64,000 bases of DNA from Actinomycetes bacterium (GCA_021809105.1 JAKBAM010000002.1:201025-265024), one strand, 5' to 3'; positions 22,366-64,000 are shown, numbered from the stretch's first letter. A program made the numbers and translations. The notes: generated from the letters alone by a model not told the origin.

Positions 22366-23280
22366 TCATGCGCCGGCCGGGGCAGAACCGTCGACGAGTG
22401 CGTCGGGGCGGCGCTCGAAGCCGAACCTGTACAGCGTGCAGATGCGGCGGTCGAACATCGCCCTCGAAACTCGGAGGTAGCGAAGGTAGCGCCGGTAGGT
22501 ATCGCGGCCGACCATCTCCGTGGCTTCGTCGGCGCTGGCCTCGAGCCGGCGTTGCCACAGCTTCAGGGTTTGCGAATACTGTGCCCCGTCGCTGCGGTAG
22601 GCAACGAGGCGAAAGCGCGTCTCGGCCGCGCTGATGATCTGCCCCAGACGTGGCAGAGACGACTCCGGGAAGATTTCTTCGGTGAAGAACGACGAGACCG
22701 CGCCGGCGGAAGGATCGAAGTCCTCGTAGGCGATGGTTTGCAGTGACATGCCGCCGCCGGGCACCAGCCATCGGGCACACAGGTCGAAAAAATGGGCGTA
22801 GACGCCGGAGCGCGCGGCGTCGTCGAGGTCCTGTCGCGCAAAGTGCTCGAAGGCACCTATCGAGATGATGGCGTCGTACGGACCGTCCGGGCGATGGTCG
22901 CGCCAGTCCTCGAGCCGGATTGCCGTCGTCTCGGCCGGCGCCACCGATGCCGCCTGGTCGGAGCTCAAGGTGAGCCCGGTGACGTGGGCGGCGCGGCGTT
23001 GCTCGGTCAGGTAGCGCAGGTTGGCGCCCCAGCCACATCCGACGTCGAGCACCTTCGTGCCTGCACCTACGCCTGCCGCGCTGGCATGCCAGGCCAGCTT
23101 CGCCTGCTGAGCCGCCTCCAGGTCATCGTCGAGCGGACCGTCCCACAAACCACACGAGTAGACCATGGCTGTGTCGAGCCAGAGGCGGTAGAAGTCGGCG
23201 CCCACGTCGTAGTGATGCTCGATCGCCACTTGAGTGGCTCCGGTAGAAGTCGCCGAGCGGTCGACGCGGGGGCGGGCCAC
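22366..23280 (-). CDS. cyclopropane-fatty-acyl-phospholipid synthase family SAM-dependent methyltransferase
   Basis: HYDVGADFYRLWLDTAMVYSCGLW plus the SAM motif VLDVGCGWGA. Lies 13 bp upstream of the desaturase. Confidence 0.8.
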   Translation of the reverse strand: MARPRVDRSATSTGATQVAIEHHYDVGADFYRLWLDTAMVYSCGLWDGPLDDDLEAAQQAKLAWHASAAGVGAGTKVLDVGCGWGANLRYLTEQRRAAHVTGLTLSSDQAASVAPAETTAIRLEDWRDHRPDGPYDAIISIGAFEHFARQDLDDAARSGVYAHFFDLCARWLVPGGGMSLQTIAYEDFDPSAGAVSSFFTEEIFPESSLPRLGQIISAAETRFRLVAYRSDGAQYSQTLKLWQRRLEASADEATEMVGRDTYRRYLRYLRVSRAMFDRRICTLYRFGFERRPDALVDGSAPAGA

Positions 23281-44938: not shown

Positions 44939-44962
44939 AGCCGCCGCTCGCAGGCCGCTTTG

Positions 44963-46525: not shown

Positions 46526-46770
46526 CTTGATCTCCTCACCATTTTTCGATCACAGGTTGTCACAGCTCGCAGGCCCAGGCCGTGATTGCCCCGTGGCTGA
46601 GCAAAACGCCCCCTGGCGACAGTGCGCCAATGTTGCGGTCTCACTGCGCTACCCTGAAGGAGTCGCCACCGCTACGCAGCAGTGTGGGAATGGATCGGGG
46701 CGACGAGCGGTTGGCGCATAGGGGAGCAAAGGCGCCCCAATAGGCGCCCGAGCGGGATGCCATCGCCCCG

Positions 46771-49700: not shown

Positions 49701-50052
49701 GCTGTCGATCAAGGCTGGTGGGTCGGGGCTCAACCTGACCGCCGCCCGCCATGTGGTCCTGTACGACCGGTGGTGGAACCCTGCGGTCGAGGATCAGGCC
49801 AGGGACCGTGCGTGGCGGATAGGCCAGACCAGCACCGTGCTGTCACACCGGTTGGTCTGCCCGGGGACGGTAGACGAACGGGTAGAGGAGATAGTCGCCG
49901 GCAAGCGGGAGGTGGCCGGCATGGTGCTACCCGCCCGCAGCTCTCTGGGAGACCTCGACGCAGCCCAGCTGCGTGCCGCGCTGGGCCTGGCGGTGGACGA
50001 GATCATCGAGGAGGAGTCGCCCCCCGCTGACAGCGAGGAGGAAGCCGCATGA
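46771..50052 (+). CDS. SNF2-family helicase (HelZ-like) with long N-terminal non-helicase region
   Basis: SNF2_N motif I LAMDMGLGKT, DEAQ box IDEAQAIKN and C-terminal helicase domain. Alternative start at 46816. Confidence 0.85.
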   Translation: MAVPNARRRLRSAAGMQTKWSRALDRITLEAAAVAEATGYASTDERAALEASPLAWVGALRRLIFETDEALSSAARLLGEERAQVLADLSAERRALATALERLTGEVPAGTDVRRPPALEPEVELPAPPRLQASWADGRVVVWAAGRGSSPLPADELDSMLKAADAGGIDWEHHASVALPTGQRADARSAAIAQTLGWLVGVGAGQVGSRATLGASLAWMGEIAVWGAELVASGRMVPVLRGSTGTGGPRSGTARHRIRWVPALLARDRLTDLVDRMPGAVVALQTSPQPEGVCRSVLSAVVDAVSRAGADRLVTPATVPQASSRVEISEAVLSGLDGRPFSAEAEPAARLAEDLKRWAAPVTVGTKIGLTVRLDPPVDDGGWLLRVEATGVDKGPLPVEHALVVASGSKSQQVETQLRRLERLLPVLRRPSTRRGQVILDAEEAGELMFNLGSIVAAAGFEVLLPVVSRRRPSPQLRLFAEAMGGQSQVGVAQLSNVRWSVLFDDLELDAAGIAKLASEARPLVQVKGRWVRIDRADLAAAAAALAERASITQLAGAALLRHAVGLEGNALGGAVRVEGHGWAVDLVQGATTHPPEPLQAPSGFEGHLRHYQAEAAGWLGFLDRARLGGCLAMDMGLGKTPTLLAHLLATRGDGPALIVCPPAVLSNWAREAARFTPGLSVALHHGPRRADAEGLVRLSASHDVVLTTYATAVRDIDALARIDWRRLAIDEAQAIKNHTSDTAQALRRVPAQSRLALTGTPVENGLGDLWAILDFTNPGLVGGRTSFIEHLSRNGEGRAGTEEGALRALNGLLVFRRTKTEPEIAAELPDKVDKLDSCGMTAEQVGLYQAVVDRLLAEDLDQDSTKRKGQVLAAITALKQICDHPAAYLGDHDAGAALDGRSGKLTRLDEIVDDVFAAGERVLIFTHFARWGEKLARYLSARTGTDVGCYHGGLSRTVRDDLVAEFQHGKGPGALVLSIKAGGSGLNLTAARHVVLYDRWWNPAVEDQARDRAWRIGQTSTVLSHRLVCPGTVDERVEEIVAGKREVAGMVLPARSSLGDLDAAQLRAALGLAVDEIIEEESPPADSEEEAA

Positions 50053-50624: not shown

Positions 50625-50807
50625 GACTGCTCCTCTCGTTCGTGCCGACGCCGCGCCGGCCGCCCTCAGTCTGGCGCATAGGAGGCCTCTAGCGCCACGG
50701 TTCCAGACAGCGACGGGTGGCTCTTGGTCCGCGAGGCGCCGGCCCGGGGATGCCACGCCGTAGGCTCATCGGGGTGGAAACCGGACGGGGGTCGGGGAGG
50801 TAGGACA

Positions 50808-51698
50808 ATGACTGTCGTCCTCGCCCTCCTGTCCGCCGCCTTGTTCGGCTCTGGTGTAGGCCTCCAGCAGCGCCCGGCGCGTGACGTCCCCGACACCTAC
50901 GCGGCCAGGCCAGGTCTCCTCGCGAAGGTGGCCCTCCGACCGCTTTGGCTGGCTGGGATCGTCGCCGAGATCGCCGGCTTCGCCCTGCAGGTCGTCGCCC
51001 TCCGCGACGGATCCCTGGTGGTCGTGCAGCCCCTCATCACCACCTCACTCCTCTTCACCCTCGCCCTTTCTGGGATGTGGTCGGGTGATTCGATCACCGC
51101 CCGGGAGTGGGTCGGGGTGGTTGCGGTGATCGCCGGTCTCTCGGCGTTCATGGTGCTGGCGGCGCCGAGCGAGCACAGCAGCGGCGTCGCCAGCCAGTCC
51201 GACTGGATCATCCTCGGAGCCACGATGGCCGGCGGGGTCGGCGCCTTGATGGTCAGCGGCTTTCGCCTGGGTGGCCGCAGTCGAGCCGCGCTCTTCGGCC
51301 TGGCGGCCGGCCTTGGCGACGCCGTGATGGCTGTGCTGACCAAGGCGCTGGCCCACTCGCTCGGTGGCGGGGTGGGGCACGCGGTGCACACGTGGTCTCC
51401 CTACGCCCTGTGCGTAGCTGGCATCGGTTCGCTCTTGCTCAGCCAAACCGCCTATCAGACCGGGCGCCCCACCGTGTCACTGCCCCTGATCACCGTCACC
51501 GACCCGATCATCAGCTCGGTCATCGGGATCGCACTCTTCGGCGAGGTGCTACGCCTAGACGGCCTGAGGGCGCCGGCTGTCGTCCTCGCCGCGGCAGTGA
51601 TGATCGTCGGTCTCGTCGCCCTCACGAGATCCACTGCGGTGATCGAGCGCCACGCCGAGGCGACCGCCGTCGACGAGCCGGCGTCTGATCCGGCATGA
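50808..51698 (+). CDS. DMT-superfamily (EamA-like) membrane transporter
   Basis: About 10 TM helices with duplicated 4-5 TM halves. First gene of a four-gene overlapping operon. Confidence 0.6.
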   Translation: MTVVLALLSAALFGSGVGLQQRPARDVPDTYAARPGLLAKVALRPLWLAGIVAEIAGFALQVVALRDGSLVVVQPLITTSLLFTLALSGMWSGDSITAREWVGVVAVIAGLSAFMVLAAPSEHSSGVASQSDWIILGATMAGGVGALMVSGFRLGGRSRAALFGLAAGLGDAVMAVLTKALAHSLGGGVGHAVHTWSPYALCVAGIGSLLLSQTAYQTGRPTVSLPLITVTDPIISSVIGIALFGEVLRLDGLRAPAVVLAAAVMIVGLVALTRSTAVIERHAEATAVDEPASDPA

Positions 51699-52834
51699 GC
51701 GAGCCGAGGGACCTGCGCGTCCCGCCCGCGCGGGTGGTGTTCAGCGCCGAGGACCGGGTCCGGGTCCTGGACCTGATCGACCAGTCGCTGCGGACCGGCT
51801 CCCTCACCCTCGGTCCGGTAGGGGCCGCCTTCGAGGAGGCGTTTGCTGCCAGCCATCGAGCCCCCCACGCCATCGCTACCTCTTCGGGCACCAGCGCCCT
51901 CGAGATCGCGCTGCGCTCCCTCGGCGTCACCGGCGAAGTGATCGTGCCCGCCAATACCTTCTTCGCTACAGCCGCCGCCGTCATCCATGCAGGCGCCCGA
52001 CCCCGCTTCGCGGACGTCGAGCGTGCCACGTTGTCGCTGTCGGCCGCCACGATCGAGGCGGCGCTGACCCCTGCGAGCACCGCGGTGGTCGCGGTCCACA
52101 TCGGCGGCCTGATCAGCTCCGAGATGGACTCAATCGCCCAGCTGTGCGCGGCGAAAGGTTTGGTGCTGATCGAGGATGCCGCTCACGCCCACGGCTCGAC
52201 CCTCGGGGGGCGCCACGCCGGCTCGTGGGGAAGGGCTGCGACCTTCTCGTTCTATCCGACCAAGGTCGTGGCCGGTGCAGAGGGCGGCATGATCCTCACT
52301 GGCGAGGCTGAGCTGGCAGCGGAAGCTCGAATATTTCGTGACCAGGGAAAGGCCGGGTTCCATGGTGGTGCCCACGTGCGGCTGGGATCCGCTTGGCGGA
52401 TGAGCGAGGTTCACGCGGCGGTCGGCTTGGTGCACCACGGGCGGCTCGACGCAGCCGTCGCCACCCGCCGGCGTGTCGCGGCTTTTTACCACTCGGAGCT
52501 GGCCGATCTGGACGGCATTACCGGCCAGGCCGAGCCGTCCGGCGCCAGGAGCTGCCACTACAAGTACGTCGCCTTCCTGGAGGTGGGCGTGGACCGGGAG
52601 CGATTGCGGACCGTGCTCCGGGAAGATCACGGCGTGGCGCTGTCGGGCGAGGTGTATCCCCGCCCTCTCCATCACGAGCCGGTTTTCGCAGATGTCCTCC
52701 ACGGCGGCCTCCCCGAGACAGAAGACGTCTGCGCCCGCCACGTCTGCCTACCTGTGTACTCCGATATGACCGACGAAGAAGCTGGCATCGTCGTGTCAGC
52801 CCTTCGCTCGGCGCTCCCACGGGCCCGGCAATGA
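51695..52834 (+). CDS. DegT/DnrJ/EryC1/StrS-family PLP-dependent aminotransferase
   Basis: ATGA overlap with the DMT gene. Family fold with the conserved region GTSALEIALRSLG...VIVPANTFFAT. 379 aa. Confidence 0.85.
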   Translation: MSEPRDLRVPPARVVFSAEDRVRVLDLIDQSLRTGSLTLGPVGAAFEEAFAASHRAPHAIATSSGTSALEIALRSLGVTGEVIVPANTFFATAAAVIHAGARPRFADVERATLSLSAATIEAALTPASTAVVAVHIGGLISSEMDSIAQLCAAKGLVLIEDAAHAHGSTLGGRHAGSWGRAATFSFYPTKVVAGAEGGMILTGEAELAAEARIFRDQGKAGFHGGAHVRLGSAWRMSEVHAAVGLVHHGRLDAAVATRRRVAAFYHSELADLDGITGQAEPSGARSCHYKYVAFLEVGVDRERLRTVLREDHGVALSGEVYPRPLHHEPVFADVLHGGLPETEDVCARHVCLPVYSDMTDEEAGIVVSALRSALPRARQ

Positions 52835-53571
52835 CCGGGAGCGCATCCCGTCGCCTCGGCGCTGCGAGTGCGGGTTTCGCCGGCATGTTCGCCGCCATCC
52901 AGTGGGTGCCGAGCGTCGTCAGCCTCGGTCAATGGCTGCCTGTTCGGTCGCTCCCATCGGGATGGTGCAGTTGGCGTGGGCGCCCTGGCACCACAGTGGC
53001 GCTCACCTTCGACGACGGTCCCGACCCCGCGACCACCCCCCGCATCCTCGACGCCCTCGATCGGCTGGGCCTGGTAGCCACCTTCTTCTGCACCGGCGCG
53101 CACGTCGAACGCCACCCTGGCTTGGCCTGCGAGCTACGAGACCGGGGGCACGCAGTCGGATCTCACGGCTATGCCCACGAGCACCACCTCTTACATGGCC
53201 CCGGCTGGATTGCCCGGGATCTCGACGCGGCCCTGAGGGTGTCGGCAGCGGCGGGGCTCAGCCCCCGGTGGTACCGGCCTCCTTACGGGCAGTGCAGCGG
53301 CCCGACCCTCTTCGCGGCGCGCCGGAGGGGCCTGAGTACGGTCCTGTGGTCGGCATGGGGACGGGAGTGGGCTGCACCCGACGCCGGAGCGGTGGCCGCT
53401 CGCGTCGGTGCGGCGCTGGCGCCCGGAGCGGTCGTGCTACTCCATGACAGCGACGCCTTCTCGCCACCCGGGTCGGTCGAGCGCACCCTGGTTGCGCTCG
53501 AGTCTGTTGCCGCTGACCTGGCCGACCGCGGTCTGCGCGCCGCCACCCTCGACGAGGTAATGGCGGAGTGA
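52831..53571 (+). CDS. polysaccharide deacetylase (NodB-homology, CE4) family protein
   Basis: ATGA overlap. NodB motifs TFDDGP and HGYAHEH. Hydrophobic N-terminus. Confidence 0.8.
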   Translation: MTGSASRRLGAASAGFAGMFAAIQWVPSVVSLGQWLPVRSLPSGWCSWRGRPGTTVALTFDDGPDPATTPRILDALDRLGLVATFFCTGAHVERHPGLACELRDRGHAVGSHGYAHEHHLLHGPGWIARDLDAALRVSAAAGLSPRWYRPPYGQCSGPTLFAARRRGLSTVLWSAWGREWAAPDAGAVAARVGAALAPGAVVLLHDSDAFSPPGSVERTLVALESVAADLADRGLRAATLDEVMAE

Positions 53572-54716
53572 GACTGCGGCGGGTGATGTTCCTCTCCGGC
53601 TCTTTGGGCAAGGGGCACGATGTGGTCGCCGAGGCCTGCGCCGCAGCCCTGGCGCCCTACAGCGTGGAGTCGACGGTGCTCGATTCGATGCGGCTCCTCG
53701 GTGGCGGCGCGGCCGCTGCCGGCGACTGGGCCTTCAAGCGGCTGCTGTCGGTGACCGCCATCTACGACGCCTTCCATTTCTCCCAGCTGCGTGACGACGG
53801 CCGCCTCGGCCGAGCGGCCGACCGGGCGGCTGTGGACAAGATGCACCGGGCTTTGAGCCGGGAGATCGACCGCTTCGGACCGCAGCTGGTCGTCCCGGTG
53901 TTCGCCACCGGTGCGGGGGCCGCGATCCGGCTCAAGCGGGAAGGTGGCACTTTCTCCACCATGGTCGTCATGACCGACTCCTTTGCTCATCGGATGTGGG
54001 TTCACGAGGGCACCGACGCCTTCCTCGTGACTTCTGCCGCTGCGGCCGAATCCGTGCGCCGGTACTGGCCGGAAGCGCCTGTGTCGGTCGTCGCGGCCCC
54101 GGTGCGGCCCGAGTTCTACGAGGCTCCCCCCCGGGCCGAAGCCCGTTCGCGCCTCGGGGTGCCCCCCGATGTCAGCTGCGTGCTGTTGATGTCGGGCGCG
54201 TGGGGGCTCGGGCCGCTGGACGAGGCGTCTGAAGCGCTGTCAGCCGACGGTACCTGGGTGCTGGCGGTGGCGGGGACGAACACCACCATGGAGCGCTCCC
54301 TCCGCCGCCTTGCGGACCGCCAGCCGAACATCGTGGCCTTCGGCTACACCGACCGGGTGCCTGAGCTCATGTCGGCGTGCGACGTGGTAGTCACCAGCTC
54401 CGGCGACACCTGCAGCGAAGCCCGTACTCTCGGTCGGGGGATCATCCTCATCGACGTCGTGCCGGGTCACGGACGTGAGAACTTGATGCATGAGCTGGAG
54501 TTGGGTGGCGCCACCGCCTGCCTCCCGAACGCGGGGTCGATCGCCAGGGCGGTGCGCAGTTTCCTCGGTGACCCGCAGAGGTCGAAGGTGGCGCCGGCGG
54601 CCGATCCCAGGGCCGCCGAGAAGCAGTTCCTGGATGCCGTGAGGGCGATAGGGTTCGAGCTACCGGAGAACCAGCTGTCAGCCAACCGGATGGGTGGTTC
54701 ACGAAAGACGGTCTGA
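53568..54716 (+). CDS. MGDG-synthase-family (GT28, UgtP-like) glycosyltransferase
   Basis: ATGA overlap. N-terminal LSGSLGKGHDVVAEA matches the MGDG_synth domain. GT28 C-terminal domain. Confidence 0.8.
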   Translation: MRLRRVMFLSGSLGKGHDVVAEACAAALAPYSVESTVLDSMRLLGGGAAAAGDWAFKRLLSVTAIYDAFHFSQLRDDGRLGRAADRAAVDKMHRALSREIDRFGPQLVVPVFATGAGAAIRLKREGGTFSTMVVMTDSFAHRMWVHEGTDAFLVTSAAAAESVRRYWPEAPVSVVAAPVRPEFYEAPPRAEARSRLGVPPDVSCVLLMSGAWGLGPLDEASEALSADGTWVLAVAGTNTTMERSLRRLADRQPNIVAFGYTDRVPELMSACDVVVTSSGDTCSEARTLGRGIILIDVVPGHGRENLMHELELGGATACLPNAGSIARAVRSFLGDPQRSKVAPAADPRAAEKQFLDAVRAIGFELPENQLSANRMGGSRKTV

Positions 54717-55487
54717 GAGCATCCGGTAGGCGTTGGGGAGCACCCGCCGGATCCTCACGGGCAGGCCGAGCCATCCGGGCACGACCCGGTCGGGGCAGCC
54801 GTGCGCAAGGCAGTAGAGGATGGCTTCAGCCACCTCAGAGGCCGGTATGGGGCTCGGCCAGGCCCGCGCATAGGGTTGGTTGCGCCGTCGGAAGAAGTCG
54901 GTGGCGACGACACCGGGGTTGACGACCGACACCTTGACGCCGCGGGGGCGCAGCTCGACTCGCAAGGCTTCGCCCAGCGCCGCCAGGCCCGCCTTCGACG
55001 CGGAGTAAGCGGCCTCGCCGCCCAAGGGGAGCAGCCCGGTGATGGATCCCACCAGAACGATCTGGCCTCCGCCCCCGGCGATCAGGTGGGGGAGAGCAGA
55101 GCGTAGCAGGTGGGCGCCGGCGCGTAGGTTGATGTCGAGCACGGCGTCGAGCTCGCCGGCGGTCATGGTCTGGAAGGGGCCGGCCCAGCCGGCGCCGGCG
55201 TTGGAGATGACGATGTCGAGCCGGCCGAGTGCGGCGACGGCCTGGGCCACTGCCTCCGAAGGACCGGTGGATGTCGCAAGATCGGCCTGAATCGTCACCG
55301 GCCCGGTGAAGTCACGGGCTACGTCTACGAGGGCGGTGAGGTCTCGGCCCACTACAGCGACTCGGATCCCTTCGGCATCGAGCAGCCTGGCCGTCGCCGC
55401 GCCGATCCCGCTCGACGCCCCGGTGACCAAGGCCGTGCGCCCCGGCGGGAGGCGTGCGCGGCGGCGGCCGGGATCAGCTCGGCTCAC
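54699..55487 (-). CDS. classical short-chain dehydrogenase/reductase (SDR), translationally coupled to hpnH
   Basis: TGASSGIG cofactor motif and YSASK catalytic motif. GTG start forms a GTGA overlap with the hpnH stop. Confidence 0.7.
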   Translation of the reverse strand: MSRADPGRRRARLPPGRTALVTGASSGIGAATARLLDAEGIRVAVVGRDLTALVDVARDFTGPVTIQADLATSTGPSEAVAQAVAALGRLDIVISNAGAGWAGPFQTMTAGELDAVLDINLRAGAHLLRSALPHLIAGGGGQIVLVGSITGLLPLGGEAAYSASKAGLAALGEALRVELRPRGVKVSVVNPGVVATDFFRRRNQPYARAWPSPIPASEVAEAILYCLAHGCPDRVVPGWLGLPVRIRRVLPNAYRMLSDRLS

Positions 55488-56488
55488 GACCCTACAGCGG
55501 CTCGCAATGATTGCTTGAGGGACTTCGTCGTCGCCAGCACGGCGCTGGGCTCGTAGCCGCAGTGGGCCATGCAGTTGGCGCAGCGTGGGTCCTTGCCCCG
55601 CCCGTAGCGGTCCCAATCTGTGGTCGCGATCAGCTCCTCGTAGGTCTCGGTGTAGCCATCGGACATCAGGTAGCAGGGCTTCTGCCAGCCGAGCACCGAA
55701 TAGCTCGGGATGCCCCACGGGGTGCAATCGAAGTCGACCTTTCCCTCGAGGAAATCGAGGAAGAGAGGGCTGTGGTTCAGCCGCCATCTCTTGCGCCGGC
55801 CGTCGGCGAAGGCGTCGGCGAAGAGCTTCGTCGAGGACTTAGTGCTGAGGAAGTTGACCTGGTCAGGCGCCTTCTCGTAGGCATAGCCGGGAGAGATCAT
55901 CATCTGGTCGACCTGGAGCTCGTCGTTCAGGTAGTCCAACACCTCCCGCACCGTTCTCACCGAGTCGGTGTTGAAGAACGTCGTGTTGGTGTTGACCGTG
56001 AACCCCCGCTCCTTGGCCTTGCGGATGGCGGCGACTGCCTTGTCGAAGGTGCCGTCCCTGCTCACCGACTCGTCGTGACGATCCCGGAGGCCGTCGATGT
56101 GGACCACCCAGCTGAAGCGGGGGTTCGGCTCGAACTTTTCCAGCTTCCGCTCGAGTAGCAAGGCGTTGGTGCAGAGGTAGACGAATTTCTTGCGGGCGAG
56201 GAGCTCGGCGACGATCTTGTCGATCTCCGGGTGCAGCAGCGGCTCCCCGCCGGCGATGGACACCATCGGGGCCCGGCTCTCCTCGATTGCGCCCACCGCC
56301 TGCTCGACGGTGAGGCGCCTGCGCAGGATGTCGGTGGGATACTGGATCTTGCCGCATCCGTTGCACGACAAGTTGCAGGCGAAGAGGGGCTCGAGCTCGA
56401 CGATCAGGGGGAACTTGTCGCGCCCGGCCAGCTTTTGCTTGGCCATGTAGGTGCCGACCTGGACACTTTGACGGAGGGGTACACCCAT
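55484..56488 (-). CDS. hpnH: adenosylhopane synthase, hopanoid-associated radical SAM protein HpnH
   Basis: CNLSCNGC radical-SAM cysteine triad. N-terminus ...FPLIVELEPLFACNLSCNGCGKIQYP closely matches the HpnH family. Confidence 0.9.
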   Translation of the reverse strand: MGVPLRQSVQVGTYMAKQKLAGRDKFPLIVELEPLFACNLSCNGCGKIQYPTDILRRRLTVEQAVGAIEESRAPMVSIAGGEPLLHPEIDKIVAELLARKKFVYLCTNALLLERKLEKFEPNPRFSWVVHIDGLRDRHDESVSRDGTFDKAVAAIRKAKERGFTVNTNTTFFNTDSVRTVREVLDYLNDELQVDQMMISPGYAYEKAPDQVNFLSTKSSTKLFADAFADGRRKRWRLNHSPLFLDFLEGKVDFDCTPWGIPSYSVLGWQKPCYLMSDGYTETYEELIATTDWDRYGRGKDPRCANCMAHCGYEPSAVLATTKSLKQSLRAAVGS

Positions 56489-56491
56489 GAT

Positions 56492-58030
56492 CTATCGGAC
56501 CTCCGGAGGTAGGGAGAAGGAGACATTTTCGGTGTGGACCGTTCGCTCGGAGACCTTCACCGGTCCCAGGCCTCGGAGCGCGTCGACCACCCGCGCCACG
56601 ACGGACTCCGGCGTAGACGCTGCTGCGGTGAGGCCGATATTGCCCACACCTGTCAACCATGCCAGGTCGAGGGCTTCCGGGTCGTCGACCAGCTCCGCCG
56701 CGGCACCTGCACTCCGGGCGGCTTCGACCAGCCTGGCTGCGTTGGACGAGTTGGACGAGCCGACGACCAGCACCAGGTCGGTGTCGGCCGCGACGGCCCG
56801 CACGGCATCCTGGCGGTTGTGGGTGGCGTAGCAGATGTCCCCCGCGTGGGGACCGATCAGGGTCGGGTAGCGGCGGCGCAGCGCCTCCACCACCGAGGAG
56901 GTCTCGTCGGGCGAGAGGGTGGTCTGAGTGACGTAGGCGACGCGGGCCCCGTCGACGGTTTCCAGGGCGTCCACCTGTTCGGGAGTGGAGACCAGGTGCA
57001 TTGCCGGAGCCTCGCCCATGGATCCCTCCACCTCGTCGTGGCCGGCGTGGCCGACGAGCACCACTTCGTAGCCCCGCTCGTTGAAGCGGCGGATCTCGGT
57101 GTGGACCTTGGCGACCAGGGGGCAGGTGGCATCGACGACTGTTATACGCCGGGCGGCGGCATCCGCCCTCACCGACGGCGCGACTCCGTGGGCGGAGAAC
57201 ACGACCGTGGCCCCGTCGGGGACCTCTTCGAGCTCCTGGACGAACACCGCCCCCCGACCTTCGAGCTCGGTGACCACGTGGGAGTTGTGGACGATCTGGC
57301 GCCGCACGTAGACCGGTGCACCATATCGGCCGATGGCACGCTCGACGGTCTCGATAGCTCGCGATACGCCGGCACAGAACGAACGTGGGCCGGCCATCAA
57401 CACGCGGCGTGGCTCTGTCGCTGCGGCCCACGCAACCAGGACCGGGGCGGCAGCCCTGAGCGCTCGCAGGGCGGCGATGCCTCCGCTGACGGTGCTCAAC
57501 GAGATGAGGTCCCGACCGGGGGTGTCGGCGATAGCACGCACCACGGCAACGGGTCGCTCCCAAGGATGGCGCAGGATCGCCGCCGACTCCATATCGACTG
57601 CGGCTGCCCCGAGAGCGGCCAACGCGTCCCGTGCGGGCCGACCCCGGACCAAGCTGTCGGTGCTGGCGATGGTCCCGGTTCGTGCTTGAAGGCCCGCCCG
57701 GCGCAGGGCGGAGGCCAACAGGGTCGCAGACGGCAGGTCGGTCACGAGCTGCCCATGGTCGTCCACCACTCGATCGGCGACTACGAGGTCGCCTGGGTGC
57801 AGGTCGTTCACCAACGCACCAGCCACGCCCGCCACGACCATGGCCTTCCCGGGCAAGCTCGCCATGCGGGCGGCGGCCGCGGCCGCGCGGGCGGGACCTG
57901 CGCCGGTGCGCTCCACTCGTAGGCCCGACGCGCCTCGGCCCACCGCTCGCGCCTCGACGCGCAGCGGCACCAGTGCCAGCAGCGCGCCGCTGGTCGCAGG
58001 TGCCGGGCGTGGCTCCGCTCGACCTTGCAT
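56492..58030 (-). CDS. fusion protein: HpnG-like nucleoside phosphorylase (PNP/MTAN family) N-terminal domain plus IspH (4-hydroxy-3-methylbut-2-enyl diphosphate reductase) C-terminal domain
   Basis: N-terminal PNP_UDP_1 motifs AAVDMESAAIL and VAVVRAIADTPG. The C-terminus from RVLMAGPRSFCAGVSRAIE to YVTQTTLS is IspH/LytB. No stop codon separates the two domains in the 512-codon ORF. Confidence 0.8.
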   Translation of the reverse strand: MQGRAEPRPAPATSGALLALVPLRVEARAVGRGASGLRVERTGAGPARAAAAAARMASLPGKAMVVAGVAGALVNDLHPGDLVVADRVVDDHGQLVTDLPSATLLASALRRAGLQARTGTIASTDSLVRGRPARDALAALGAAAVDMESAAILRHPWERPVAVVRAIADTPGRDLISLSTVSGGIAALRALRAAAPVLVAWAAATEPRRVLMAGPRSFCAGVSRAIETVERAIGRYGAPVYVRRQIVHNSHVVTELEGRGAVFVQELEEVPDGATVVFSAHGVAPSVRADAAARRITVVDATCPLVAKVHTEIRRFNERGYEVVLVGHAGHDEVEGSMGEAPAMHLVSTPEQVDALETVDGARVAYVTQTTLSPDETSSVVEALRRRYPTLIGPHAGDICYATHNRQDAVRAVAADTDLVLVVGSSNSSNAARLVEAARSAGAAAELVDDPEALDLAWLTGVGNIGLTAAASTPESVVARVVDALRGLGPVKVSERTVHTENVSFSLPPEVR

Positions 58031-60001
58031 TCAGCGATCTCCAGATGCGTAGCGCCCGAGCGCCGTCAGCGGGAAGACCAGTCGGTAGAGGTGGTAGTTG
58101 ATGTTGAAGTCCCACGGGAAGCCGGTGCCCGTGTACTGAGGCTCGTCCCATGTCCCGTCGGGCCGCTGGGTCCCGACGAGGAACGCCACACCCGCCCTGG
58201 TCGCGGCGCTCTCGCGCTCTCCGGCGGCCAGCAGGGCGAGGAGGGCCCAGGCCGTCTGTGACGGTGTCGAATCGCCTCGTCCCCTCCACTGCTCGTCGAC
58301 GTAGGAGCGCATGTCCTCACCCCAGCCCCCGTCGGGGTTCTGGTGTGCCTCCAGCCACGCGACCGCCCGGCGCACCCGCTCGTCGCCTGGCGCCACCCCG
58401 GCGTCGATGAGTGCCGGGATGGCCGCGCCGGTGCCGTAGACGTAGTTGCTGCCCCAGCGACCGAACCAGGAGCCGTCATCCTCCTGCTGGCTGCCGAGCC
58501 AGTCGACGGCGCGAGCTACCGTCTCGTGCGGCACGCCAGGCTCACCCGCGAGCATCTCGATGACATGGGCGGTGACGTCGGCTGACGGGGGGTCGGTCAC
58601 ACGTCCGAAGTCGCAAAACGGCAGGGCCGCACACAGCTCGCTGTCGTTGTCGACGTCGAAGGCGCCCCACCCCCCGTCCCTGCACTGCATGCCGAGGGTC
58701 CAGGCCACCCCCCGCTCTACTGCCGCGCAGCGGGGACCCGTGTCACCTGCGGCCACCCCTGCCCGGCGTAACGCCATGATCACCTCGGCGGTGTCGTCGA
58801 TGTCGGGATAGAGATCGTTGGCGAACTCGAACGCCCAGCCGCCCGGCTCGAGCTCGGGGCGGCGCACCGCCCAGTCGCCCTTGATGCGAACCTCCTCTGC
58901 CACCAGCCAACCGGCGGCCGCCTGCATGGCTGGATCGTCGGGGGCGACCCCTGCATCGGCCAAGGCCACCACCGCCAGGGCGGTGTCCCACACCGGGGAC
59001 TGGCAGGCCTCGACGTGGCGCCCACGGTGGTCATCGAGCACGAAGCCGTCGATGCCGGCGAGCGCTGCCTTCATCACCGGGTGCTCAATGGAGTAGCCCT
59101 GGAGGTGCAAGGCGATCACGGAGTAGACGATCGGCGGCTGGATACCCCCCCAGCAGCCGTCGGCCTCCTGCCGCGAGAGGATCCAGCGTTCTGCCCGGGA
59201 GAGGCAGGCGCGGCGCACCGCGGCCCGGGGCAGGACCCAGCGAGGTAGGCGCTCGTAGCGGTGAAGTAGCCGGTCGAGCGCCTGGAAGGCGAGGGCGGTA
59301 GGGGTGCGGGAAGCTGGCTTGGACGCGGCCGGCGGCGATGCCAGCTCGTCTAGGGCGAAGGGCAGCGGGCGAGCGGGACGGTGGGCCATCACGACGCTCA
59401 GCGCGACGATCGTCTGGCGGGCCCAGCACCCGAAGTCGTAGATGTTGAGCGGTGCCCACTTCGGCAGCAACATGATCTCGGCCGGAAGTACCGGGAGCTC
59501 CTCCCACGGCCAAGCGCCGACCATCGCCATCCAGATCCGGGTGAAGACCCGGGTTCGGGCGAGACCGCCGTGGGATCGGATCCACGTCGCGGCTGCCACC
59601 ATGTGCGCTTCCCGGGCGTCATGGCCCGAGAGGCGCAGCGCCACGTAGGCCTCGACCGTGGTGGAGAGATCTCCTGGGCCGGCGAAGTATGTCGCCCACG
59701 CCCCGTCCTGACGTTGGTGGGAGGCAATCCAGCGCCCGGCGGCGGCCCTCGTGGCATCGTCGAGGATCCCGAGGAAGTGGCGCAACAGGAGGTCCTCGGC
59801 ATCCATGGTGACGTTGGTCTCGAGCTCCCCCTTCCACCATCCACCGGGGTGTTGGAGCTGCAGGAGGTGCTCGCAGGCGCGGTCGCGCGCATCGACTGCT
59901 CCCGCCACATCCTCTGCCCCGACGACCACGAGGCGGTCGGCTTCGTGGGGTGCTGGCGATGTGGGTTCTTCGTCGACGGGCCGCTCGGCGAGCGAGGTCA
60001 C
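58031..60001 (-). CDS. shc: squalene-hopene cyclase
   Basis: Catalytic DIDDTA (DXDDTA) motif and several QW motifs (DGGWG, DGSWFGRWG). GTG start forms a GTGA overlap with the FPP synthase stop. Stop abuts the next gene (TGAATG). Confidence 0.9.
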   Translation of the reverse strand: MTSLAERPVDEEPTSPAPHEADRLVVVGAEDVAGAVDARDRACEHLLQLQHPGGWWKGELETNVTMDAEDLLLRHFLGILDDATRAAAGRWIASHQRQDGAWATYFAGPGDLSTTVEAYVALRLSGHDAREAHMVAAATWIRSHGGLARTRVFTRIWMAMVGAWPWEELPVLPAEIMLLPKWAPLNIYDFGCWARQTIVALSVVMAHRPARPLPFALDELASPPAASKPASRTPTALAFQALDRLLHRYERLPRWVLPRAAVRRACLSRAERWILSRQEADGCWGGIQPPIVYSVIALHLQGYSIEHPVMKAALAGIDGFVLDDHRGRHVEACQSPVWDTALAVVALADAGVAPDDPAMQAAAGWLVAEEVRIKGDWAVRRPELEPGGWAFEFANDLYPDIDDTAEVIMALRRAGVAAGDTGPRCAAVERGVAWTLGMQCRDGGWGAFDVDNDSELCAALPFCDFGRVTDPPSADVTAHVIEMLAGEPGVPHETVARAVDWLGSQQEDDGSWFGRWGSNYVYGTGAAIPALIDAGVAPGDERVRRAVAWLEAHQNPDGGWGEDMRSYVDEQWRGRGDSTPSQTAWALLALLAAGERESAATRAGVAFLVGTQRPDGTWDEPQYTGTGFPWDFNINYHLYRLVFPLTALGRYASGDR

Positions 60002-61041
60002 GATTCCCGATCCACCACGAAGGCAGCGAGGTCGGCGAGCGTACGGTGGGGCACAGGGGAGAGACGCACCCGCTCCAGGGCTCCGAGGGCGCCGTCTAGG
60101 TGCGACTTGGCCCGCGTCCGGGCCCATTCCCTGCCCCCGCACGCTTCGACCAGGTAGGCGGCACGAGTGACTTGCGCCTCATCGAGAACTGGTGCGCCCG
60201 GGGTTCCGACGACCAGCGCTCTCAGCTCGTCGGACTCGTCGCCCCCCGCCGCCAGTGCGGCCACGACCGGCAGCGACTTCTTGCGGCGCCGGAGATCGTT
60301 GCCCGCCGGCTTTCCGGTGCGCGCCGGGTTGCCCCAGATCCCGAGCAGGTCGTCGACGGCCTGGAAGGCGAGCCCCAGGTGTCCCCCGTAGTCGCGGAGG
60401 GCACCGATGGTGGCGGGGGGTGCGCCGGCCAGGACTGCCCCGATCGATGCCGCTGCGCCGAGGAGAGCGCCGGTTTTGGCCGCGCACATGGCGACACAAT
60501 CGTCGACCGACACGGTGGATTGCCTCTCGAACGCGATGTCGTCGGCCTGTCCGGCGATCATCGCGGCAGTGGCGTCCGCCAGCAGCTCAGCCGCCGCGGA
60601 GCCGTGCGCCTCGCACTCGAGGAGCACCTGCTGGGCCGCCACTGCCAGCGCGTCGCCGGCGATTATCGCCGGCCCGATCCCGAAGACGGACCACACCGTG
60701 GGGCGGTGGTGGCGCTCGGTGTCACCGTCGATGATGTCGTCGTGGATCAGGGAGTAGTTGTGGACCAGCTCAACCGCCACCCCACCGGGCACGCCGATCT
60801 CGGGCTCGGCCCATGCCGCCGCGGCGGAGAGGAGGGCCAGGGCGGGGCGCACCAGCTTGCCGCCCGGGGCGTCGAGCGGGCGGCCATCAGTATCGGTCCA
60901 GCCGAGGTGGTAGGAGGCCATCCTGGCTATGTCGGGGTTCATGCGCCTCACGGCGTGTTCCATCGCAGGTTGGATCGCGCTCCGGGTCCGAGCCAGGGCA
61001 TCGGGCAGGCTGCCGCCGTTGGAGGAAGGAAGTTGGGTCAT
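59998..61041 (-). CDS. polyprenyl (farnesyl) diphosphate synthase
   Basis: First DDxxD motif DDIIDGD and second motif FQAVDDLLG. Confidence 0.85.
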   Translation of the reverse strand: MTQLPSSNGGSLPDALARTRSAIQPAMEHAVRRMNPDIARMASYHLGWTDTDGRPLDAPGGKLVRPALALLSAAAAWAEPEIGVPGGVAVELVHNYSLIHDDIIDGDTERHHRPTVWSVFGIGPAIIAGDALAVAAQQVLLECEAHGSAAAELLADATAAMIAGQADDIAFERQSTVSVDDCVAMCAAKTGALLGAAASIGAVLAGAPPATIGALRDYGGHLGLAFQAVDDLLGIWGNPARTGKPAGNDLRRRKKSLPVVAALAAGGDESDELRALVVGTPGAPVLDEAQVTRAAYLVEACGGREWARTRAKSHLDGALGALERVRLSPVPHRTLADLAAFVVDRES

Positions 61042-61063
61042 GCGGTCACTCGCTCGCATTCGG

Positions 61064-62470
61064 TCAGGTCACCTCCTGGGGTAGGTGCCGGGTGACGCCG
61101 GCGCCTACGAGCGCAGCGCGGGCGGCTCGCCGCCCGCTGCGTAAGGCGCCTTCCATCGTCGCCGGCCATCCGGTGTCGGTCCACGCTCCGGCCAGGTACA
61201 GCCCCGGCAAACGGGTCAAGGCGCTCGGCCTCAGGGCGCCGCTGCCGGGGACGGCCCTGAAGGTGGCGTGTCGCTCCTTCGTCACGACGGCATCGAGGAC
61301 CGTAGCGTGGCGCGACGCAGGCAAGATCCGGTGGATCTCTTCGGCCATCGTGGTGGCGAGGGTCTCGGGTCTTGTGCCGAGGTGGTCGTCGGCCGCAGAC
61401 AGGGACAAGGCAAGGTGCTGTGGCTCTCCCGGACCGCCCGGCGCCAGCCCTGAAGAGCTCGTGCGGTCGAACACCCACTGCACCGGAGAGTCCAGCGCCG
61501 CCAGCAGCGGCAGATCGGTGACACGCCGGTCGTAGAGGAGGTGCACGTCGACGATCGGAGACAGGCCCAGCTGACCGATCCGGCTCAAACCAGGCAGCGC
61601 CCAGTCAGGCACCAGCCCAGGCAATTCGGTGTGAGGGAGCGCGACGATGACGGAGTCGGCGTGTAGATCCTTGCCTCCGGCGACGACCCGAAGCGCCGTG
61701 GGTGCATCGGCCCCGCCGTCCACCGCCGTGACGCGAGTCTCGGTCCGCACCTCGACGCGTGCCTTGGCCAGGGCCGACAGCGAACGCTCACCGTGGAGCT
61801 GCGCCAACGGTATCCGGGACCACCCGATGTCTGCGGCCCGCCGATCGGTCAGCAGGCCGGTCTGGAACACTTTTGCGCCCATCGCCAGGGAGGCTTCGCT
61901 GGCTGGAAGGTTGATCGTCGCCACTGTGATCAGGTCCCACAGCGCCGCGATGGTCGACGGCCGCTGGCCGTGGCGGGCCAGCCATGCACCGAAGGTCTCC
62001 CGGTCGAGGCGTGGGTCGTCCAAGTCGATGTGGCGCAGCGGGAGGACGGCGCGCCCGAGGCGCAGGCGGTCGGCGACGGACAGGTGGCGGTACTGGAGGA
62101 GCGCCCGAGCGAGGTGAAGCGGCGCAGGGACGTCGTCGCGGCGAAGGCGCGCGCTGAGCGGGGGCCGACCTCGGCTCGCCGCCCTTATGACAGTGATGTC
62201 GAGGTGGTCCTGGATCTCGACGTCGCCGGCCGAACCGATCCGGTCCAGGAACTCGAGATATGCGTGGCAGCAGCGGAGGAACACGTGCTGGCCGTTGTCG
62301 AGCCAGCGGCCCTGGTGCTCGAAGGACCAGGTGAGGCCACCGAGGCGCCGGCGCCGCTCGAGCAGGGTCACCCGAGCACCCGCGTCTGCGCAGTCGAGCG
62401 CCGCTCCCAACCCGGCGAGCCCTGCGCCCACCACCACGACATGGGGGCGGTCGCGGGCGGCGGGTGTCAT
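61064..62470 (-). CDS. hpnE: hydroxysqualene dehydroxylase (squalene-associated FAD-dependent desaturase HpnE)
   Basis: FAD-binding VVVVGAGLAGLGAALDCADAG. Amine-oxidase/phytoene-desaturase fold. ATG forms an ATGA overlap with the hpnD stop. Confidence 0.85.
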   Translation of the reverse strand: MTPAARDRPHVVVVGAGLAGLGAALDCADAGARVTLLERRRRLGGLTWSFEHQGRWLDNGQHVFLRCCHAYLEFLDRIGSAGDVEIQDHLDITVIRAASRGRPPLSARLRRDDVPAPLHLARALLQYRHLSVADRLRLGRAVLPLRHIDLDDPRLDRETFGAWLARHGQRPSTIAALWDLITVATINLPASEASLAMGAKVFQTGLLTDRRAADIGWSRIPLAQLHGERSLSALAKARVEVRTETRVTAVDGGADAPTALRVVAGGKDLHADSVIVALPHTELPGLVPDWALPGLSRIGQLGLSPIVDVHLLYDRRVTDLPLLAALDSPVQWVFDRTSSSGLAPGGPGEPQHLALSLSAADDHLGTRPETLATTMAEEIHRILPASRHATVLDAVVTKERHATFRAVPGSGALRPSALTRLPGLYLAGAWTDTGWPATMEGALRSGRRAARAALVGAGVTRHLPQEVT

Positions 62471-63339
62471 GCCCGGCCCACCGTAAGGGCTCGCGCCGCA
62501 ACCGCAGCCTTCTCCCAACCCGGCAACGAAAGCCGGCCTCGCGTGACCGCGAGCGGGTCGCGCTGGATCCGGTCGAGCAATCGCCGGTAGATGCCAGCCA
62601 TGGCGGCGGTGCATGCCCGGGAGCGCCGGTCCAGTCTCGGCAGGAGTGCCAGGCCCCGGTCGTACCACTCAGCCGCACGAGATGCCTCGAAGCTCACCAG
62701 GGCGGCGAGAGCGTCATCGCCCCCGCGCACCTCGGAGTCAACGTCGAAGCGGGCCAGGTCATCGGCGGGCAGGTAGACCCGCCCCATGGTTTCGCGATCC
62801 TCGACGATGTCACGCAGGATATTGGTCAGCTGGAGGGCGACCCCCAGGGCGTCGGCCAGGGGATCCGCTCGGGCCCGGTCCGGTGTGCGGTATACCGCCA
62901 GCGACAGCCGACCGACCGTGCCTGCCACCCGCAGGCAGTAGCCGATCAGGTCCTCGATCGTGTTGTAGGTGACCCCCTCCACGTCCATCTCGCAACCCGC
63001 GATGAGCTCGTCGAGCGCCGACAAGGGGAGGTCATAGCGCCGGGCGGTGTCTCCCAGCGCGATCAACACGGGGTCCCCTCCGGCCGCCGCCGGATCGTCG
63101 GCAACGGCCATGACTGCGTGGCGGGTCGCGGCCAGGGCGGCGAGCTTGTCGTCGGATCCGGCCCCGCCATCGCCGATGTCGTCAATCCTCCTGGCTATCG
63201 CATACAGGGCGCTCATAGCGGCTCGCTCCGGTGGTCGCAGCAGCCTTATCCCGTAAGAGAAGTTGCGGGCTTCGCTCCTCGTGATCTCCTCGCAGCGTCG
63301 GTAGGCGTCCTCCAGATCCGTGGCGGCGGGCAAGCTCAC
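62467..63339 (-). CDS. hpnD: presqualene diphosphate synthase (squalene/phytoene synthase family)
   Basis: SQS/PSY family motifs YGIRLL and ARRIDDIGD. GTG start forms a GTGA overlap with the hpnC stop; the exact start is uncertain. Confidence 0.75.
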   Translation of the reverse strand: MSLPAATDLEDAYRRCEEITRSEARNFSYGIRLLRPPERAAMSALYAIARRIDDIGDGGAGSDDKLAALAATRHAVMAVADDPAAAGGDPVLIALGDTARRYDLPLSALDELIAGCEMDVEGVTYNTIEDLIGYCLRVAGTVGRLSLAVYRTPDRARADPLADALGVALQLTNILRDIVEDRETMGRVYLPADDLARFDVDSEVRGGDDALAALVSFEASRAAEWYDRGLALLPRLDRRSRACTAAMAGIYRRLLDRIQRDPLAVTRGRLSLPGWEKAAVAARALTVGRA

Positions 63340-64000
63340 CTCCGTGCTCCGAGGAGACCGATGGTGTGGGAGGCGACCCGAGAGGCTCGAGGCTGTGGTG
63401 TTCGTGTCAGCGGGTCGAAGCCCCCCGCAGCGAGAGCGTCCAGCGCGGCGTGACCACCGGCGACGAATCCAGCGACGGCGAGGCGCGATCGTCCCCCGAG
63501 GCTGTGCACGAGTGGTGCTCCCGACCGCAGCAGGCGCCGGGCCCGCCATGCCTCGAAAGCCATGAGCCCGCGCAACGCCGTCCCCGCCGGCGCGGCTGAG
63601 CGACTCAGGTCGGCACTCGACACCCCGAACCGATCGAGGTCGTCCAGCGGCAGGTAGATCCGGCCGGCGGCGTGGTCCTCAGCCACATCCTGCCAGTGCT
63701 CGGCCAGCTGCAGGGCGGTACAGACCATATCGGACCAGGCCACCCGCTCCGGCGTGGCCGCTCCGAAGGCGGCCAGCACCAGCCTGCCGATCGGGGCCGC
63801 GGACAGGGCGCAGTAGCCGACGAGGTCGTCGAAGCTCTGGTAGCGGGTGACGGCCTGATCCTGCCGGTTGGCTGCCACTAGGTCGCGCATCGGCGCCGGA
63901 TCGGCACCGAGCCGGAGGAGGCAGGCAGCCGCCCGCGACACCAGCGGATCGAGCCCGTCCTGGCTGGGATCTTTCAAAGCCGCGCTGAGCTGCTCGTCGA
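63336..64000 (-). CDS. hpnC: hydroxysqualene synthase (squalene/phytoene synthase family), 5'-partial; continues beyond the window end
   Basis: SQS/PSY C-terminal region YCALSAAPIGRLVL and YLPLDDL. The reading frame is open to nt 64000. Confidence 0.8.
   Translation of the reverse strand, partial: DEQLSAALKDPSQDGLDPLVSRAAACLLRLGADPAPMRDLVAANRQDQAVTRYQSFDDLVGYCALSAAPIGRLVLAAFGAATPERVAWSDMVCTALQLAEHWQDVAEDHAAGRIYLPLDDLDRFGVSSADLSRSAAPAGTALRGLMAFEAWRARRLLRSGAPLVHSLGGRSRLAVAGFVAGGHAALDALAAGGFDPLTRTPQPRASRVASHTIGLLGARR

Follow-up and report, generated by a model that had tools for sequence, protein, structure and literature searches.

A translationally coupled hopanoid operon in an Acidimicrobiia bacterium with a candidate ribosylhopane reductase at its end and a putative glycolipid cassette alongside

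Results

Gene content and organization of the locus

The DNA analyzed here, a stretch of 64,000 nucleotides (nt) from an Actinomycetes bacterium (GCA_021809105.1 JAKBAM010000002.1:201025-265024; hereafter, the window), carries at positions 54699 to 64000 eight minus-strand genes lying head-to-tail in the order hpnC (partial), hpnD, hpnE, a polyprenyl-diphosphate synthase gene, shc, an hpnG::ispH fusion, hpnH, and a gene for a classical short-chain dehydrogenase/reductase (SDR). Their identity, order, and strand, proposed in a first-pass annotation made from the sequence alone, were upheld by NCBIfam and Pfam scans. Together they form a translationally coupled operon for hopanoid synthesis in a member of the Acidimicrobiia, ordinary as such clusters go; what it adds to an ordinary operon annotation is a hopanoid-linked SDR subfamily, a reinterpretation of an IspH fusion, and a neighboring glycolipid cassette.

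All seven junctions in the operon are 4 nt or shorter. The annotation had counted five overlapping junctions: read base by base, four are true 4-nt overlaps (GTGA at 63339-63336, ATGA at 62470-62467, GTGA at 60001-59998, and GTGA at 55487-55484), but at the fifth the shc stop and the hpnG::ispH start abut, as TGAATG at 58033-58028. The remaining two are gaps, of 4 nt between hpnE and the synthase gene and of 3 nt between ispH and hpnH. In an approximate, automated count that missed some genes, 4-nt overlaps are scarce in the rest of the window outside this operon and a convergent cassette, and tight coupling is a property of operons here. The operon had also been called complete, but hpnC is cut by the window edge and the pathway can be shown to be encoded no further than ribosylhopane. 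The nearest genomes by HpnH identity (81 to 84%) are Acidimicrobiales and Acidimicrobiaceae metagenome-assembled genomes (MAGs), and the same locus is present, with an HpnH 95% identical, in Acidiferrimicrobium sp. IK (locus L086). The order hpnC-D-E-synthase-shc-hpnG-ispH-hpnH is kept in other Actinomycetota genomes.

A hopanoid-linked SDR subfamily

The gene that ends the operon (54699..55487, minus strand) encodes a 262-amino-acid (aa) classical SDR (PF00106, 163 bits against a cutoff of 27), a candidate ribosylhopane reductase. It starts within the last codons of hpnH at the GTGA overlap, and at its 3' end it shares 18 nt with the convergent glycosyltransferase gene. Its only Pfam matches are adh_short, adh_short_C2, and KR, with none to PF01370, the family of HpnA-type extended SDRs. 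As in classical SDRs, TGASSGIG, S148, and Y161-K165 are invariant in both alignments (A1 and A2). Across the subfamily the invariant elements are TGxSSGIG, a G-R after beta-2, NAGxGWxG, and S...YxxxK, along with a conserved, basic and aromatic C-terminal tail (FFxRR..PY.R..P...VPGW...YR.L..R); an arginine after beta-2 fits a preference for NADP(H). On a profile built from 11 orthologues, members score at least 273 bits, whereas no other SDR in the DNA retrieved exceeds 188; the best 120 database homologues all score at least 309. That the protein belongs to a sharply delimited, hopanoid-linked, and apparently undescribed subfamily is well supported. When metagenomes were scanned with the SDR alignment, generic SDRs dominated the results, and true orthologues made up only 6 of 80 loci.

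The AlphaFold model of the SDR (pLDDT 89) has a Rossmann fold, and its closest structural neighbor is clavaldehyde dehydrogenase (2jah), barely ahead of many other SDRs; we take that enzyme to be NADPH dependent, which is weak evidence. Sequence and fold searches against solved structures ranked 2jah first but did not discriminate among SDR substrates.

Orthologues of the SDR (at least 49% identity) stand beside hpnH, hpnJ, or hpnR in 12 of 15 contexts. In nine, hpnH lies upstream on the same strand (the window, L086, L088, L089, L091, L014, L096, L095, and L016); in three, HpnJ or HpnR adjoins the SDR (L093, L090, and L098); and in three, a glycosyltransferase partner alone is visible. Locus L178 is an additional hpnH-linked case. 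The homologues at 69% (from Acidiferrimicrobium sp. IK), 60%, and 57% identity each directly follow hpnH in a hopanoid operon, and those at 49 to 55% do so in L091, L014, L096, L016, and L095, the last an isolated hpnG-hpnH-SDR set beside transposases. The profile also picks up more divergent subfamily members, encoded next to hpnH but on the other strand, in L019 and in L025, a Chloroflexota MAG. In L091 and L014, the NTP-transferase and GT4 genes after the SDR were considered as hopanoid glycosylation genes and rejected, being glgC/glgA-type glycogen genes (TIGR02149, 540 bits).

The other contexts involve membrane transport and glycosyl transfer. In L090 and L093, a module of a drug/metabolite transporter (DMT), the SDR, and a glycosyltransferase is followed by a true HpnJ (TIGR03471, 782 and 762 bits against a cutoff of 578). 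HpnR also adjoins the SDR in L090 (810 bits against a cutoff of 650), and the SDR follows HpnR in L098. Streptomyces locus L094 has an SDR-DMT-deacetylase/glycosyltransferase module with no hopanoid gene within 10 kb. A compact tailoring set for hopanoids in L090 (L090:2773-8916, JGI metagenome contig Ga0669144_0001906) comprises DMT-SDR, a convergent HpnR (the C-3 methylase, 810 bits), a GT28-like glycosyltransferase, and HpnJ (762 bits); within the sequence examined it stands apart from any core operon, and the public call apparently places the glycosyltransferase on the wrong strand.

Alternation of the SDR with HpnO

In the closest relatives of the window (L006, L008, L010, and L013 and, by tblastn, L007, L009, and L012), the gene after hpnH encodes a class III aminotransferase of 460 to 472 aa, which is 57 to 59% identical to the in-cluster Streptomyces protein. 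These HpnO-type Acidimicrobiales operons (L006-L010, L012, and L013) have an HpnH 78 to 84% identical to that of the window, the same core order, and the hpnG::ispH fusion, but carry the aminotransferase where the window has its 262-aa SDR. Two of them (L010 and L006) share the convergent glycosyltransferase with the window, and L010 also shares the DegT and DMT genes. Among the hpnH loci tallied, 11 have the SDR only, 13 HpnO only, none both, and 8 neither (one-sided Fisher test on 10-kb loci, P = 6e-4, not corrected for phylogeny). The SDR-type and HpnO-type loci interleave on a neighbor-joining HpnH tree, suggesting that the two genes have been swapped repeatedly. The first-pass annotation had raised the possibility that hpnO was replaced by the convergent operon; replacement by the SDR is the better account, given that the class III aminotransferase fills the SDR slot in the closest relatives.

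The hopanoid clusters of Streptomyces, compared in about 60 Streptomyces and related genomes, likewise run hpnC-hpnD-hpnE-polyprenyl synthase-shc-hpnG-hpnH on one strand, with identities to the window from 37 to 44% (HpnG domain) up to about 70% (HpnH). A gene of the methylerythritol phosphate (MEP) pathway is embedded in both; the S. coelicolor cluster, which we take to be SCO6759-6771, presumably carries ispG and dxs. Of the 65 loci L021-L085, most of them from Streptomyces, 47 have a downstream class III aminotransferase (HpnO), whereas the window has the subfamily SDR and neither hpnO nor dxs.

That hpnO, hpnN, and dxs are missing from the window, as the annotation had stated, was borne out among the open reading frames (ORFs) scanned. 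Most of the remaining larger ORFs in the window were scanned against Pfam and NCBIfam, and no class III aminotransferase, RND/MMPL transporter, DXS, or HpnA was found among them. No scanned ORF matched PF00202, and tblastn with the HpnO-like protein of a relative found no counterpart in the window; nor did tblastn find HpnJ or HpnR there. The sole Epimerase-family ORF found in the window (16479-17378) does not match HpnA. Since hpnO or hpnN immediately beyond the window would have overturned the annotation's account, we read past nt 64000 on the parent contig (L002): neither gene is there, nor is hpnA or hpnB, and the 4 kb beyond nt 64000 contain no PF00202 aminotransferase. What follows, in order, is the first 76 codons of hpnC, a MerR/TetR-type regulator, Pirin, a metallo-beta-lactamase-fold protein, and an acyl-CoA dehydrogenase. 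The regulator (L002:2803-3729) has MerR_1 and TetR_N Pfam matches and matched no NCBIfam model; it and its counterparts in L086, L089, L091, and L178, which are 264 to 308 aa long, are conserved near hpnC in these Acidimicrobiia loci, usually directly upstream on the same strand, and the MerR_1/TetR_N protein may regulate the operon.

The hpnG::ispH fusion

The sixth gene of the operon (56492..58030, minus strand) encodes a 512-aa fusion of an HpnG-like domain and IspH (PF01048 at residues 39 to 172 and PF02401 at residues 210 to 485). Its N-terminal part is a probable adenosylhopane nucleosidase/phosphorylase domain of the PNP/MTAN type, and its C-terminal part is IspH, the hydroxymethylbutenyl diphosphate reductase. 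The IspH domain (residues 203 to 512) scores 296 to 415 bits (TIGR00216, 296 against a cutoff of 188), whereas the HpnG-like domain (residues 19 to 176) reaches 83 bits on TIGR03468 against a cutoff of 187. A low TIGR03468 score appears normal for the phylum: the syntenic, in-cluster Streptomyces HpnG, 37 to 44% identical to the window domain, reaches just 72 bits. The translation contains the three IspH cluster cysteines and the catalytic-type HpnG motifs DMES and RAIAD. The fusion protein is also encoded on the Acidimicrobiia MAG contig DAHWEV010000033.1 (GCA_027326245.1), which has 4 mismatches to the window in 17.5 kb.

HpnG and IspH share one uninterrupted frame in 19 HpnH-anchored loci. 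Setting aside 4 that duplicate the window itself leaves 15, drawn from genomes of Acidimicrobiales, Actinomadura, Streptosporangiaceae, Solirubrobacteraceae, and unclassified Actinomycetota. Four more fused loci are L086, L091, L096, and L178. Among HpnH-anchored loci, hpnG and ispH were never seen adjacent but separate, and in the Streptomyces loci hpnG is unfused, with no ispH match within 10 kb. The fusion is widespread in actinobacterial hopanoid operons and is a lineage-wide feature. A 2015 survey of IspH hybrids recorded a "UDP/PNP phosphorylase"-IspH protein in a single species and thought it possibly random; other "Rosetta stone" fusions of IspH include IspH-RPS1 and IspH-UbiA (PMC4746011). 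Those hybrids and ours both join IspH to a second enzyme, but here the partner is HpnG and the loci are many. An ispH gene adjoining hpnH was already known from Proteobacteria and Acidobacteria (PMC4263297, PMC5462960).

Core genes from squalene to adenosylhopane

The profile searches that the annotation had proposed put HpnE (TIGR03467), HpnH (TIGR03470), squalene-hopene cyclase (SHC; TIGR01507), and full-length HpnC (TIGR03464) above their cutoffs and HpnD (TIGR03465) marginally below. The squalene synthase gene hpnC (63336..64000, minus strand) is represented in the window by its 3' 220 codons and stop, its first 76 codons lying outside; the 220 in-window residues score 208 bits, and the full 296-aa protein (L002:3805-4692) scores 271 against a cutoff of 250. 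Presqualene diphosphate synthase is encoded by hpnD (62467..63339, minus strand), which has a GTG start and overlaps the hpnC stop at GTGA; the protein is syntenic, and TIGR03465 is its best match, at 270.3 bits against a cutoff of 278.6. The public gene call uses an alternative TTG start at 63333, 6 nt downstream, but the GTG start is favored because the 4-nt hpnC/hpnD overlap is kept in relatives. Next comes hpnE (61064..62470, minus strand), for hydroxysqualene dehydroxylase (407 bits against a cutoff of 283), which overlaps hpnD at ATGA. The three-enzyme HpnC/HpnD/HpnE squalene route is thus present in the window cluster.

The polyprenyl-diphosphate synthase gene (59998..61059, minus strand), probably encoding a farnesyl diphosphate (FPP) synthase, had been annotated as such outright. 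Membership in the polyprenyl synthetase family stands (PF00348, 173 bits against a cutoff of 27), but the best named NCBIfam matches, NF041169 (387 bits against a cutoff of 450) and IdsB (304 bits), fall under cutoff. A tyrosine occupies position -5 before the DDIID motif of the translation, a residue associated with a short prenyl chain, and an FPP (C15) product is plausible from the sequence. The top match, NF041169, is a model for family 2 encapsulin cargo polyprenyl transferases.

Downstream, shc (58031..60001, minus strand) overlaps the synthase gene at GTGA and scores 746 bits against a cutoff of 431; the motifs that the annotation had named were found in its translation, as DIDDTA and at least four QW-type repeats. 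The radical-SAM adenosylhopane synthase gene hpnH (55484..56488, minus strand; 521 bits against a cutoff of 225) begins 3 nt past the ispH stop, and its product contains CNLSCNGC, matching the CxxxCxxC motif. In one orthologous locus, hpnH is called at 200 aa (L089:9402-10004) and tblastn covers 41% of the query; in an operon that is otherwise intact, this probably reflects a frameshift, a misassembly, or a pseudogene.

A convergent cassette

Four plus-strand genes at 50724 to 54716 converge on the operon; each of their three junctions is a 4-nt overlap (at 51695, 52831, and 53568). The first (50724..51698) encodes an EamA-like DMT membrane transporter (NF038012 DMT_1, 142 bits against a cutoff of 50); where it starts is in doubt, the public call giving 296 aa, and homologues adjoin the SDR in L090, L093, and L094. 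The second (51695..52834) encodes a DegT/DnrJ/EryC1-family sugar aminotransferase (PF01041, 331 bits; PseC, 227, and ArnB, 170, both below cutoff). The third (52831..53571), with an ATGA overlap upstream and a GTGA overlap downstream, encodes a NodB-type polysaccharide deacetylase (PF01522, 93 bits; the best NCBIfam match, NodB, at 116, is below cutoff). The last (53568..54716) encodes a GT28-type lipid glycosyltransferase resembling monogalactosyldiacylglycerol (MGDG) synthase (PF06925); the solved structures closest to it are those of a processive diacylglycerol beta-glucosyltransferase (9wde) and of plant MGD1. Homologues of this glycosyltransferase (44 to 47% identity) lie directly upstream of HpnJ in L090 and L093. 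The 3' end of the glycosyltransferase gene shares 18 nt (54699-54716) with that of the SDR gene, so that no terminator would fit between the operons.

The cassette accompanies the hopanoid operon in L086, L088, and L178. Two HpnO-type loci, L010 and L006, have part of it, and L007, L008, L012, and L013 lack it. A transporter (DMT, MFS, or MMPL) adjoins it in the window, L086, L010, L178, and L176; L088 and L177 have none at that place. We considered a cassette strictly specific to hopanoids, but its occurrence in L176 and L177 without a hopanoid gene within 10 kb weakens that idea. In L176 (GCA_963757175.1, a 2.46-Mb contig), the DegT-deacetylase-glycosyltransferase genes and a divergent, split MMPL gene lie near Pirin and Lactamase_B genes, which in the window's genome stand beyond the opposite end of the hopanoid operon. 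The arrangement suggests that related genomes differ by an insertion or deletion of the entire operon together with the SDR. The MMPL protein beside the cassette in L086 was examined as a possible HpnN but is MmpL3-like, with only 33 bits on TIGR03480 and 227 on MmpL3. Just past the cassette of that genome (L086:15171-18687), the MmpL3-like protein is accompanied by a protein of the LPG_synthase_TM/flippase-like family, to which HpnL belongs, and neither occurs at the equivalent place in the window.

Farther from the operon, the window encodes a pyridoxal phosphate-dependent decarboxylase, an aldehyde dehydrogenase, and a DUF3670/SNF2 helicase (43550-50049), and the parent contig has a small IF-1 gene between the cassette and the helicase. 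The decarboxylase-to-helicase genes are syntenic with the hopanoid locus in L086, L088, and L178 and are probably unrelated to hopanoids. A further gene for membrane lipid modification, about 31 kb from the operon, encodes a CMAS-family lipid methyltransferase resembling cyclopropane and mycolic acid synthases (22369-23280, minus strand; PF02353, 199 bits).

Discussion

The operon almost certainly encodes, to judge from its sequence, the core pathway as far as ribosylhopane, including precursor supply by IspH. HpnD, HpnC, and HpnE would make squalene from FPP supplied by the in-operon prenyl synthase, SHC would cyclize it to diploptene, and HpnH would add a 5'-deoxyadenosyl group to give adenosylhopane. 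The HpnG domain would then remove adenine, yielding ribosylhopane, while the fused IspH domain would raise the supply of isopentenyl and dimethylallyl diphosphates. In the proposed last step, the terminal SDR would convert ribosylhopane, in its open-chain aldehyde form, to bacteriohopanetetrol (BHT) by reduction with NADPH.

An NADPH-dependent cell-free activity for the conversion of ribosylhopane to BHT has reportedly been observed. No enzyme has been assigned to this conversion (PMC5462960, PMC4263297); a 2017 study described the enzyme as unknown and HpnA as unproven (PMC5462960), and a 2026 review calls the step "nonenzymatic" (PMC13459092). A 2025 survey found that some Actinomycetota can make ribosylhopane, without downstream enzymes (PMC12324291).

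The basis for giving this step to the SDR is genomic association. HpnO transaminates the aldehyde form of ribosylhopane, and the SDR occupies the slot where sister lineages carry HpnO, so that the operon would be a tetrol-branch variant of the actinobacterial cluster whose amine-branch variant would be the known Streptomyces type. A role as a BHT-forming reductase fits best because an SDR of NADPH type repeatedly replaces HpnO after hpnH and because it accompanies glycosylating and HpnJ-type enzymes that need a tetrol acceptor. From its sequence and surroundings, the SDR is a candidate ribosylhopane reductase forming BHT, an assignment that we regard as a serious possibility short of a probable one; a core operon with a tetrol-forming SDR is the best explanation of the locus as a whole, with a likelihood approaching an even chance.

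Several points weigh against a ribosylhopane reductase. Guilt by association cannot fix the substrate of an SDR, and the similarity of this one to aldehyde reductases, in sequence and fold, is no better than to many other SDRs. It could act on a sugar, because it travels with a GT28-like enzyme and a DMT away from hpnH in L090, L093, and L094. The cassette also occurs in L176 and L177 with no hopanoid gene within 10 kb. Streptomyces has a subfamily gene outside its hopanoid cluster, and S. albogriseolus has both a subfamily gene and an in-cluster hpnO; the two are therefore mutually exclusive within a locus but not within a genome. Among the 120 best database matches, none is an orthologue from a BHT-producing proteobacterium, so the SDR is at best a lineage-specific solution.

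HpnA (TIGR03466), named "hopanoid-associated sugar epimerase," is presumably an extended SDR, whereas the window protein is a 262-aa classical SDR without an Epimerase-family match. Like our protein, HpnA is an NAD(P)-dependent Rossmann-fold enzyme linked to hpnG and hpnH, and it has been suspected in the conversion of ribosylhopane to BHT (PMC5462960). It has, however, been reported to be dispensable for BHT in B. cenocepacia, and R. palustris lacks it (PMC5462960).

The SDR may instead be part of the glycolipid cassette and not act on ribosylhopane. It would then perform redox chemistry at a sugar or cyclitol position, either of the glycosylated lipid or of the donor, for instance to supply the keto group for amination by DegT or to help form a cyclitol of the HpnJ type. 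The co-directional DMT-SDR-glycosyltransferase module conserved in L090 and L093 fits such a role, as do the SDR-DMT-deacetylase genes with a convergent glycosyltransferase in Streptomyces L094, the SDR-glycosyltransferase pairs in L097 and L100, the DMT, glycosyltransferase, and deacetylase that accompany the SDR of L019, and the extended SDR inside the DegT-deacetylase-glycosyltransferase cassette of L177. The association fails in both directions, however: in the sequence examined, the SDR follows hpnH without the cassette in L091, L014, L096, and L095, and the cassette lacks a subfamily SDR in L010, L176, and L177. DegT is also absent from L090, L093, and L094, and a cassette role leaves the alternation of SDR and HpnO in one slot unexplained. 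We consider it unlikely.

The same hopanoid linkage that points to BHT formation would fit another side-chain step, either oxidation of the ribosylhopane lactol to a lactone (ribonylhopane) or a hydroxyl/keto interconversion, and the solved relatives found by sequence include glucose and ribitol dehydrogenases and L-xylulose reductase, the latter also a fold match. Ribonylhopane has, moreover, been reported in R. palustris mutants (PMC4263297). A lactone branch would have no obvious reason to exclude HpnO, however, and the arginine after beta-2 suggests NADPH and hence the reductive direction, making this a distinctly improbable role. Very improbable is that the SDR and cassette are neighbors by descent only, the operon ending functionally at hpnH and BHT arising from an unlinked or nonspecific reductase: SDRs are ubiquitous, the cassette of L176 and L177 has no hopanoid gene within 10 kb, and synteny with the SNF2 helicase and IF-1 genes is likewise conserved, but the SDR linkage recurs in three gene contexts (hpnH, hpnJ, and hpnR) and two phyla, outlasts rearrangement (as in the L095 set beside transposases), and extends to the 4-nt hpnH/SDR overlap, kept in L088 and L089.

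If the SDR does form BHT, this lipid could serve as the acceptor for the cassette. DegT as a direct substitute for HpnO, an idea that we entertained, is not favored, since L010 carries both. In the Arn (PmrHFIJKLM) pathway for lipid-linked aminoarabinose, the component types resemble those of the cassette: a DegT-family ArnB, a NodB-family ArnD, the DMT-superfamily ArnE/F, and a lipid glycosyltransferase. The likeness is one of working logic only, as the scores are below the family cutoffs, the glycosyltransferase is GT28-like and not ArnC or ArnT, and there is no ArnA. The HpnI/HpnK/HpnJ pathway of Burkholderia and Rhodopseudomonas also pairs a glycosyltransferase with a de-N-acetylase acting on a lipid, but the window enzymes are GT28/MGDG synthase-like (PF06925) as opposed to GT2 and NodB-type (PF01522) as opposed to the HpnK family, which we take to be YdjC-like; HpnJ is missing, and DegT and DMT are extra.

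An aminoglycolipid synthesis and export module is suggested because the nearest solved glycosyltransferases use a lipid acceptor and the components recall HpnI/HpnK and Arn. In such a module, the GT28-like enzyme would add an N-acetyl-amino sugar, the NodB-type enzyme would de-N-acetylate it, and the DMT would flip or export the product. That the cassette decorates the hopanoid product, with BHT as acceptor and by analogy to HpnI/HpnK but with unrelated families, is possible but doubtful. The joint proposition, in which the SDR subfamily is the ribosylhopane-to-BHT enzyme in Actinomycetota and Chloroflexota and the cassette a new amino-sugar hopanoid route nonhomologous to HpnI/HpnK, is advanced just as tentatively.

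Bacteriohopanepolyols are major membrane lipids and geological biomarkers, and BHT is the parent of most composite hopanoids. An IspH hybrid once dismissed gains meaning through the fusion, which ties the supply of precursors to hopanoid tailoring. The SDR subfamily provides a clonable candidate and a sequence profile for the conversion of ribosylhopane to BHT, making an old question testable, and its alternation with HpnO may serve as a genomic predictor of tetrol-type and amino-type hopanoid producers.

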